From: Uncultured Candidatus Berkiella sp.
GTDB taxonomy: Bacteria; Pseudomonadota; Gammaproteobacteria; Berkiellales; Berkiellaceae
Direction of reading: 5' to 3'
DNA length: 64,000 nucleotides
NCBI GenBank assembly: GCA_964606325.1
Contig: CAZSGE010000010.1
Location: forward strand, 9,645-73,644
Shown here: positions 51,868-53,100 of the stretch, one piece after another
Numbering within the stretch: position 1 is the first letter of the stretch
How the letters are laid out: every line of letters begins with the position of its first letter
Notes under the pieces: model-generated
What the model was told of the DNA's origin: nothing
Database searches by the model: none
Seen by the model: the letters and a program-made list of their open reading frames with translations, nothing else
Position numbers and translations under genes: made by a program

Positions 51868-53100
51868 CTACTGATATCTACTTCTTGCTCTTACACCACG
51901 TAACCCCTGACTCAAAACCATATCAAAAGTATGCAAAGCTTGATCAATTGTAAATCGCTTATGGCGGTTAACAGATAACATACCACTCAATAAAGGATCT
52001 TGATCAATTATTTTCCTATCCTTTTCTTCAGGCTTAACACCATATCGCAATTCAAAAATTAACACGCCCATTGCCCAAATGTCATTGGTTTTATGTGACA
52101 CGCCCCAGCTTCGCAACGTTGTTTGTCTGATATTTTGATCTCCAAAAGGCCTGACTGCTGAATCATCATTAAAATACTCATACTGACTAGAGTCTGGGCG
52201 CTTATAATAATTTAATATTTCAGGCGAACTATATTCCCAGGTAGATAATGAATCTTGACCAGATTCTTCATCAACTGAATTACCAAAATCAGATATTTTA
52301 ATATAATATCCTGTTCGAGCATTACCATACACCAGTATATTTGCCGACTTAATATCTTGATGAATTATTTTTTGTTCGTGCAAGTATTTGAGTGCATTGA
52401 GTAGTTGATGTGTTAGTGCGTCAATGAGAGCACGCGACAAACGATGATTACGAATAAATTCCTGTAAATTGCTAATCGCTTTTTTAGAATAAATACTCAC
52501 CTTTTTTTCTTTATTCTTTTCAATAATAGGCCCCAGTTGAGTTTGGTTAACATACTCGTCGGAAAGTCGTGCTGATGTATTTACTTCTTCTTGAATTCTT
52601 TCATAGTCACTGTCGGATGCTATTTTTGCAACAAGGTTAAAATATTCTTCGTAATTATCAATTCTCCAAGCTGGTTTACCAATTTTATAACCGCCTGTGG
52701 TATCAGATATATGTTGCTTACGGTTATTAGCTAGTTTACTTTTGGTTTCTACGAGTAATTCTAACTCGCCAGTTCTATCGCAAAGAATGGTAATTGTTCG
52801 AGGTAAATGTGTATCCTTCTTATCAAGCCGATAACTTTCGCAGGGCTTTAAAGAAGCAATCTGCTCTAAATATTGATGTCGTTTAGATCTATCACGGGTT
52901 TTGCGTAAATTAGGATCAACTTTGAAATAATCAAAAATAAGCTGCAAATCCCCTTGCGATACCAAAGCTTGCAGGCCTTCAGGAACAAGCGCTTGCTGTG
53001 CTTGCGCTAATCGCTGCAGCAACATGTCGTATTTATTATGACAATCTGGCTCATTATCAACGTCAATTTTGCGTTTTTTACTTGATGGTGCGAATATCAT
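51868..53100 (-). CDS. Eukaryote-like Ser/Thr protein kinase (non-RD)
   Basis: YLHEQKIIHQDIKSANIL, KISDFG, EYSSPE, NDIWAMGVLIFEL. Confidence 0.9.
   Translation of the reverse strand: MIFAPSSKKRKIDVDNEPDCHNKYDMLLQRLAQAQQALVPEGLQALVSQGDLQLIFDYFKVDPNLRKTRDRSKRHQYLEQIASLKPCESYRLDKKDTHLPRTITILCDRTGELELLVETKSKLANNRKQHISDTTGGYKIGKPAWRIDNYEEYFNLVAKIASDSDYERIQEEVNTSARLSDEYVNQTQLGPIIEKNKEKKVSIYSKKAISNLQEFIRNHRLSRALIDALTHQLLNALKYLHEQKIIHQDIKSANILVYGNARTGYYIKISDFGNSVDEESGQDSLSTWEYSSPEILNYYKRPDSSQYEYFNDDSAVRPFGDQNIRQTTLRSWGVSHKTNDIWAMGVLIFELRYGVKPEEKDRKIIDQDPLLSGMLSVNRHKRFTIDQALHTFDMVLSQGLRGVRARSRYQ

Follow-up and report, generated by a model that had tools for sequence, protein, structure and literature searches.

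The stretch of DNA analysed here, hereafter the window, comprises 64,000 nucleotides of contig CAZSGE010000010.1 from an uncultured Candidatus Berkiella sp., and its minus-strand open reading frame (ORF) at 51868..53100 (ATG start, stop codon included, supported by the sequence and by Pfam) encodes a 410-residue, 47-kDa Ser/Thr kinase whose N terminus carries a short basic block resembling a nuclear localization signal (NLS). The window kinase makes a good, though unproven, candidate for delivery into the nucleus of the host cell. The best single reading of the data is a secreted, constitutively active kinase that is imported into the nucleus of the host; we infer translocation, import and activity, and the chain as a whole is tentative, with a little less than even confidence. 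All coordinates given for the kinase gene are on the minus strand.

In the mechanism proposed, a soluble eukaryote-type Ser/Thr kinase would be delivered into a protist host, most plausibly by a Dot/Icm type IVB system. Without the arginine of arginine-aspartate (RD) kinases it would need no activation-loop phosphorylation, and the enzyme would be active once folded in the host; K139 would contact the ATP phosphates in the manner of K233 of WNK1. Residues 8-11, which form the KKRK block, would bind the major groove of host importin-alpha, and the 47-kDa kinase would then pass the nuclear pores and phosphorylate nuclear substrates. Residues 20-82 and the Lys/Arg-rich residues 84-128 might, as a guess, recruit substrate or an anionic cofactor.

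Kinase fold and probable position of the catalytic lysine

When the protein was compared with Pfam, the Pkinase model (PF00069) matched with 82.2 bits against a cutoff of 31.7 (E = 5.4e-23), the match spanning residues 165-298 only. The AlphaFold model, computed with 10 homologues as input, reached a predicted local distance difference test (pLDDT) score of 82 and a predicted TM-score of 0.81, with residues 1-19, 130-139 and 400-410 disordered. The top Foldseek matches in the PDB were the CAMK-group kinases DCLK1, CaMKII and DAPK1 (E approximately 4e-13, target TM-scores 0.6-0.69, approximately 280-300 aligned columns); the Foldseek probability was 1.00 to many kinases, and the hhalign probability was 99.9%. 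A profile search of the PDB also returned CAMK-group kinases, at E values of approximately 1e-22 to 1e-17, and Chk2, CaMKII and DAPK were found by sequence search as well. Matches in NCBIfam were all below threshold, with PknB-type kinases at 43 bits. No transmembrane segment, sensor domain or PASTA domain was found by Pfam or in the AlphaFold model. These findings solidly show that the kinase fold of the window protein is complete and of eukaryote type, and that its nearest relatives in fold are of the CAMK group.

The catalytic loop HQDIKSAN (residues 247-254; 52339..52362), the DFG motif (residues 271-273; 52282..52290) and the SPE motif, equivalent to APE (residues 292-294; 52219..52227), were present as the original prediction had listed them. 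Conservation was counted over 153 representatives of the kinase family aligned to a hidden Markov model (HMM) indexed on the window protein. D249 was found in 151, N254 in all 153 and D271 in 148 of these representatives, and the glutamate of helix alphaC (E172, 52585..52587, in a helix of residues 163-178) in 123, while S, P and E of the SPE motif were found in 146, 150 and 141, respectively. The near-invariant core positions were E172, H241, H247-Q248-D249-x-K251-x-x-N254, D271-F-G, S292-P-E, D340-x-W-x-x-G and R382. Upstream of the Gly-rich loop, K94, R101, E118-T-K120-S-K122 and K128 were near-invariant, and in the Gly-rich loop and beta2 the same was true of G136, K139, K142, W145 and D148. 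In H247-Q248-D249 the position of the RD arginine is taken by Q248, which was conserved in 138 of 153 representatives, with R in only 2; the non-RD glutamine is a family trait. The assignment as a non-RD Ser/Thr kinase, made earlier from the letters of the window, is upheld by the Pfam score, by the AlphaFold and Foldseek fold, and by the intact catalytic-loop and metal-binding residues.

The lysine of the N-lobe was found at another place than had been supposed. In the window protein, the column of the canonical beta3 (VAIK) lysine is occupied by L156, within the sequence GGYK139IGKPAW...YFNL156VAK, and K139 (52684-52686) stands where the third glycine of the Gly-rich loop is expected. The loop and beta2 cover residues 134-145 (TTGGYKIGKPAW; 52666..52701, placed by alignment columns), and the beta3 strand covers residues 151-160, EEYFNLVAKI (52621..52650, placed by the model and the family alignment). 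The register was fixed by a subclade of the family that has a textbook GxGxFGxV loop followed by KPAWRID and then by ..EEWVNK; this canonical subclade identifies column 139 as that of the third glycine and column 156 as that of the VAIK lysine. The implicit assumption of the original prediction that the lysine of LVAK, K159, is the conserved VAIK lysine was therefore wrong, since K159 is variable (K in 43 of 153 representatives) and lies three columns off the canonical position. A second candidate, K120 of ETKSK as the beta3 lysine followed by a 40-residue insert between beta3 and alphaC, had been suggested by strand order and was ruled out by the same register.

The two lysine positions were mutually exclusive in the 148 members that were aligned at both columns. 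K139 without K156 was found in 125 members and K156 without K139 in 13; none had both and 10 had neither (Fisher p = 7.5e-13). Column 156 held L, A, S or M among the 125 members with K139. G139 was found in 16 members with the canonical GxGxFGxV loop, of which 12 had K156 and two more had a lysine shifted by an insertion. Moreover, K139 aligned with K233 of WNK1 by both hhalign and hmmsearch, the comparison sequence being identical to PDB chain 5w7t_A; alignment of the N-lobe by hhalign needed the 153-sequence profile, and neither a 10-sequence profile nor a single neighbour sequence aligned it. In WNK kinases another residue stands in place of the beta3 lysine, whose role has passed to a lysine of beta2 (PMC12599244). 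With the beta3 lysine absent and a lysine present at the third glycine, the predicted active site of the window kinase has the arrangement of the WNK type, and K139 appears to be a relocated catalytic lysine that compensates for the lost beta3 lysine. Two observations weigh against this assignment. On a neighbour-joining tree from which these columns were left out, the members with the canonical lysine fell essentially into a single clade (four parsimony changes), so that the covariation reflects few evolutionary events; and K139 borders a loop that the AlphaFold model gives with low confidence. The minority clade that retains the GxGxFGxV loop and the beta3 lysine as WVNK (P0085, P0091, P0093, P0096, P0100, P0105 and others) is a possible internal control.

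The resemblance to WNK does not extend to the protein as a whole. The family HMM gave 89 bits to a DCLK-like kinase and 55-69 bits to other canonical kinases, whereas WNK1, with 46 bits, was the lowest of the 14 comparison kinases. Descent from WNK was ruled out by this score together with the CAMK-group top matches in the PDB, and because there is no specific overall relationship to WNK, the resemblance is convergent and not inherited. No report of a WNK-like bacterial kinase was found in the literature searched, coverage of which was incomplete, so that this is weak evidence.

The replaced lysine also bears on whether the protein is a pseudokinase that serves as a scaffold or binder, or that performs non-kinase chemistry on a kinase fold as SidJ does. 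L156 in place of the VAIK lysine, the variable K159 and a degenerate Gly-rich loop (GGYKIG) would all fit a pseudokinase, and bacterial kinase-fold effectors with non-kinase chemistry, such as SidJ, do exist (PMC12599244). However, D249, K251, N254, D271, E172, SPE and DxWxxG were near-invariant across the representatives, the loss of the lysine is apparently compensated as in active WNK kinases, and no member had a lysine at both positions; a pseudokinase is accordingly quite improbable. If the lack of a VAIK lysine were taken as the mark of a pseudokinase, automated annotation would mislabel hundreds of bacterial kinases that are likely active. The family also amounts to a natural experiment on catalysis, with a WNK-like Gly-loop lysine in approximately 85% of members, a canonical beta3 lysine in a minority clade and no member with both, and its lysine pattern points to more than one origin of the WNK solution.

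The basic N-terminal block and proposed delivery to the host

The basic block stands in an N-terminal tail that depends on the choice of start codon. An in-frame stop was found 4 codons upstream of the ATG in the window gene and 2-6 codons upstream in its three closest relatives (P0002, P0003 and P0004). These relatives have no Met at the position of M26 of the window protein, yet they retain the N-terminal peptide. Because of the upstream stops, the lack of an M26 equivalent and the retained peptide, the start codon and the tail are real. Residues 1-13 read MIFAPSSKKRKID, and the longer N-terminal stretch reads MIFAPSSKKRKIDVD; an identical protein (P0001, 100%) was found on 2 public contigs. 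Residues 1-19 (53044..53100) were disordered in the AlphaFold model, with pLDDT <50.

PSSKKRKI was confirmed at 53065..53088, exactly residues 5-12 of the ORF, with the KKRK core at residues 8-11 (53068-53079). K8-K9-R10-K11 with P5 upstream matches the K-K/R-X-K/R consensus and satisfies both the pat4 and the pat7 pattern of PSORT type. The description of this block as a classical monopartite NLS-like motif also held, given its fit to the consensus, its disordered terminus and its basic character in the three closest relatives. KKRKID of the window kinase resembles KKRKVE and KKKRKVED of SV40. The N-terminal tail as a whole is net neutral, KKRK being followed by D13, D15, E17 and D19. A Sec or Tat signal peptide and a mitochondrial presequence were excluded by inspection, on account of the acidic stretch after KKRK and the lack of a hydrophobic core. 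Ser or Ser-Pro was seen directly before the block in the window protein (53080-53085) and in P0003, P0004, P0106, P0127, P0141 and P0158; the Ser-preceded forms were SSKKRK, SSNKRK, GSKKRK, QSKKRK, SPKRRK and PSKRRK, which could reflect phospho-regulation of import or composition.

Evidence for selection on the block came from the closest relatives, whose overall identity to the window kinase is 45-66%, with the syntenic P0002 at 66%. The block reads KKRK in the window protein, KRRK in P0002, NKRK in P0003 and KRAR in P0004. In contrast, the linker that follows it, residues 12-24, was identical to that of the window protein at only 2 of 13, 2 of 13 and 4 of 13 positions in P0002, P0003 and P0004, respectively (15-31%), compared to 69%, 52% and 45% identity in the core. 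A conserved basic block within a fast-diverging disordered tail is the pattern typical of a short linear motif. It is because the block is conserved while the linker diverges that KKRK stands above chance; the motif alone does not.

Similar blocks were found across the family. Four consecutive basic residues ([KR]4) occurred at approximately 0.20 per 1000 residues in a background of 73.7 kres (thousand residues) of related ORFs, compared to 0.53 per 1000 in family tails (2.6-fold, p = 3e-4), and twice in the 18,864 residues of the window ORFs. For K[KR]x[KR] the values were 1.25 and 2.14 per 1000 residues in the background and in family tails, respectively (1.7-fold, p = 1.5e-5). PSORT-type patterns within 40 residues of a terminus were found in 10 of the 20 members of a family comparison. 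The [KR]4 carriers were dispersed over the family tree (16 carriers, 13 parsimony changes), and the motif stood at either terminus. Motifs resembling the window block were found in distant members as MKEGSKKRKFED in P0158 and QSKKRKVW in P0106, and also as SPKRRKSD and PSKRRKRLE. Scattered carriers with the motif at either end would fit a transferable signal. Functional NLSs of nucleomodulins likewise lie at either terminus and follow the K-K/R-X-K/R pattern (PMC7819608).

Several findings weigh against nuclear import. By chance alone, a genome should contain a handful of proteins with one [KR]4 near a terminus, for instance within the first 20 residues; in the family, [KR]4 outside the core was found in only 17 of 153 representatives; and PSORT-type patterns within 40 residues of a terminus were also present in 29 of 201 background ORFs (14%). 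The motif enrichment is real but modest (2-3-fold), and kinship among the members makes the p-values overstate independence. Should the bacterium replicate within the nucleus, an NLS on the kinase would be of use only until the nucleus has been entered. As for secretion, no Glu was found in the last 30 residues of the kinase and no Glu-rich or small-polar pattern of the Dot/Icm kind, which is a weak test since many effectors lack such a signal, and no dot/icm gene was found within the window. The original prediction of a host-nucleus-targeted kinase effector was thus supported in part: the complete kinase, the conserved NLS-like block, the Berkiella lineage and the effector-type neighbours speak for it, while the lack of an acidic Dot/Icm C-terminus and the modest enrichment do not.

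It is possible, if somewhat unlikely, that the kinase is a translocated effector whose site of action is the cytosol of the host or the bacterial vacuole and not the nucleus. Its basic termini would then serve lipid or nucleic-acid binding, recognition for secretion, or as a pseudosubstrate for a basophilic CAMK-like site. The LegK-type effector kinases of Legionella act outside the nucleus. The modest enrichment of NLS-like motifs in the family would agree with such a role, and P0004 carries KRARTES, a string like a basophilic phosphosite. Moreover, the window protein and the three relatives are basic at both ends, beyond the need of one NLS. The last 15 residues of these four proteins contain 4-8 K/R and 0-2 D/E, and the disordered C-terminal tail of the window kinase (residues 400-410, LRGVRARSRYQ; 51871..51903, pLDDT <50) holds four Arg in 11 residues; this basic C-terminus could itself act as another NLS, signal secretion, or bind lipid or nucleic acid. 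A 2021 review of nucleomodulins, furthermore, mentions host kinases only (PMC7819608). On the other hand, the block matches the consensus of the importin-alpha major site exactly, its recurrence at either end of distant paralogues points to a position-independent signal, and three of the four proteins lack an acceptor Ser/Thr after the basic block. A net-neutral N-terminal tail also fits electrostatic membrane binding poorly and is closer to KKKRKVED of SV40.

Kinase family, organism and genomic neighbourhood

An exhaustive HMMER search found 234 clusters at 50% identity with E<=1e-30, which overturned the small family of approximately 10 relatives suggested by word-index homology searches. 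The family is large and without an established name, and its helical and beta N-terminal extension is family-specific. In the window protein, the helical domain covers residues 20-82 (52855..53043), has no Pfam match and consists of helices 20-36, 41-44, 49-58 and 69-82 at pLDDT of approximately 90, with R30 and L43 conserved. It is followed, before the kinase N-lobe, by a beta-strand extension of residues 84-128 (52717..52851), with strands 89-92, 103-107 and 113-118 in the AlphaFold model; the five near-invariant Lys/Arg of this extension (K94, R101, K120, K122 and K128) might bind an anionic ligand or cofactor. An insert of approximately 35-40 residues between alphaEF and alphaF (residues 297-336; 52093..52212) appeared as a gap in hhalign alignments opposite canonical kinases and WNK1, and its residues 301-330 were modelled at lower confidence (pLDDT 67-76). 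The giant members P0027 and P0028 have two or three tandem kinase domains and others are 1400-1700 residues long; in Pfam, these giant paralogues showed extra kinase domains only and no other recognizable domain.

A scan of genomes placed the family almost exclusively in Berkiella-related metagenome-assembled genomes (MAGs), three of which carried at least 2 copies each. The named relatives of the kinase come from Candidatus Berkiella MAGs and related gammaproteobacterial MAGs, and bacterial TPR-kinases were the next-best matches in profile searches after the family itself. An ordinary Hanks-type signalling kinase that works inside the bacterium, with KKRK incidental, could be argued from those TPR-kinases and from the weak PknB-type similarity in NCBIfam. 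This is nevertheless highly unlikely: the best matches are eukaryotic CAMK kinases, there is no transmembrane, sensor or PASTA domain, the multicopy family is nearly restricted to one lineage, the window gene has Sec7, RhoGAP and XopH-like genes around it, and the basic block is conserved in an otherwise fast-evolving tail.

The aconitase of the window was 82% identical to that of 'Gammaproteobacteria bacterium 39-13', 77% to that of a Candidatus Berkiella sp. MAG, 75% to that of a Berkiellales MAG and 67% to that of B. cookevillensis; from these identities, the source is a Berkiella-related bacterium other than B. cookevillensis. Sequencing runs with the kinase gene came from metagenomes of bioreactors, biofilm, sludge and indoor environments. 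The cultured Berkiella, invaders of amoeba nuclei, have an obligate intracellular life in vacuoles that associate with the nuclei of their hosts or enter them, and they encode a Dot/Icm system and 18-23 eukaryote-like kinases; the Berkiella genome paper contains no NLS analysis. Throughout Legionellales sensu lato, the type IVB secretion system is conserved. Vacuoles that come close to the host nucleus or enter it occur in few bacteria, the Berkiella type among them, and the NLS-tipped kinase is a concrete candidate for the nucleus-targeting step.

The window is chromosomal and encodes TamB, aconitase, PutA and PutP. Its stretch from 40.6 to 58 kb is rich in eukaryote-like genes, namely an XopH-like PTP-phytase, RhoGAP and Sec7/RalF-like genes, two kinases and an Anp1-like glycosyltransferase. 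The Sec7-domain protein (255 residues; 47283-48050, minus strand) matched Pfam at E = 1.2e-48 and the RalF model at 124 bits, below the equivalog cutoff; its gene is conserved beside the kinase gene at the locus of P0002 (L017), and it is a likely Arf guanine nucleotide exchange factor effector. This locus is syntenic with the window, with 4HBT, LysR and Sec7 genes in common, and lacks the second kinase. The PTP-like phytase (40626-41585, minus strand), which resembles the Xanthomonas effector XopH at 185 bits, below cutoff, and the protein with a RhoGAP domain match (42660-43838, plus strand) are further eukaryote-directed gene candidates. The 272-residue Anp1-matching ORF (57166-57984, minus strand; E = 7e-9) resembles a subunit of the eukaryotic Golgi mannan polymerase, unusual in a bacterium.

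The second kinase, which is unrelated (656 residues; 53231-55201, plus strand), is transcribed divergently from the NLS-tipped kinase at a distance of 130 bp. It has a canonical loop GEGGDGKV, a VACK lysine, YRDLKTDN (where Tyr replaces the His of HRD) and DFG, and its long C-terminal extension carries a basic cluster, EKRRVRATTSKK, at residue 496 (54716-54751). Functional pairing of the NLS-tipped kinase with this gene or with a convergent 158-residue ORF was unsupported, as both are absent at the syntenic locus. The stop of the second kinase and the end of a 596-residue ORF (55204-56994, minus strand) are 2 bp apart; this ORF has no Pfam or NCBIfam match and contains, near its N-terminus, a low-complexity stretch rich in Glu and Lys. 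By domain content, a TPR-plus-methyltransferase protein (35243-36778, plus strand) and a PKMT-type protein-lysine methyltransferase with a winged-helix domain (38725-40443, plus strand) were also identified. A 2727-residue protein with RTX calcium-binding repeats and a cadherin-like domain (18357-26540, minus strand) is probably a type I-secreted adhesin or toxin. Nothing was found in an Rfam scan of the window, and a promoter and terminator scan gave signals at shuffle level.

Comparison with known kinases and nucleomodulins

Among nucleomodulins with a classical NLS, RomA/LegAS4 of Legionella and CaeA of Coxiella are secreted proteins with a terminal K-K/R-X-K/R motif and importin-dependent entry (PMC7819608), to which the window kinase is likened by motif only. 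No bacterial protein kinase is described as a nucleomodulin in the 2021 review (PMC7819608) or was found in the literature searched, where coverage was incomplete and the evidence is weak. A more far-reaching proposal is that a large, lineage-specific family of effector kinases independently reinvented the WNK active site, that a subset of them, the window kinase included, repeatedly gained classical NLSs, and that these would be the first nucleus-imported bacterial kinases, with which nucleus-associated bacteria like Berkiella would condition the nucleus before or during invasion; this proposal is regarded as doubtful. Among eukaryotic parasites, ROP16 of Toxoplasma is a secreted kinase with an NLS.

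The CAMK group, represented by DCLK1, CaMKII, DAPK1 and Chk2, was the best match in sequence and fold for both the C-lobe and the overall fold. The window kinase differs from it in a divergent N-lobe, in the insert between alphaEF and alphaF and in the lack of a calmodulin-binding regulatory segment, and identity over the fold alignments was approximately 18-22%. With WNK kinases it shares the missing beta3 lysine and the third-glycine lysine, the family consensus being G-[TS]-F-K-[ST] compared to G-S-F-K-T in WNK1. However, WNKs are RD kinases (HRD) whereas the window kinase has HQD, and the accessory domains of WNK were not found in it.

The window kinase is similar to the Dot/Icm kinases, namely LegK1-LegK4 and LegK7 of Legionella pneumophila and the 18-23 Ser/Thr protein kinases of Candidatus Berkiella, in having a soluble eukaryote-type domain, a source among intracellular bacteria of the Legionellales lineage, multiple paralogues and eukaryote-like neighbours. 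Orthology with LegK1 (NCBIfam NF043056) was rejected, because this model, although the best NCBIfam match, scored 42.8 bits compared to an equivalog cutoff of 550 bits. What separates the window kinase from the LegK-type kinases is a helical and beta N-terminal extension of its own, together with the non-RD loop, the relocated lysine and the NLS-like tip. Three features set it apart within the eukaryote-like effector kinases: the position of its lysine, its membership of a large family, and an N-terminal extension specific to that family.

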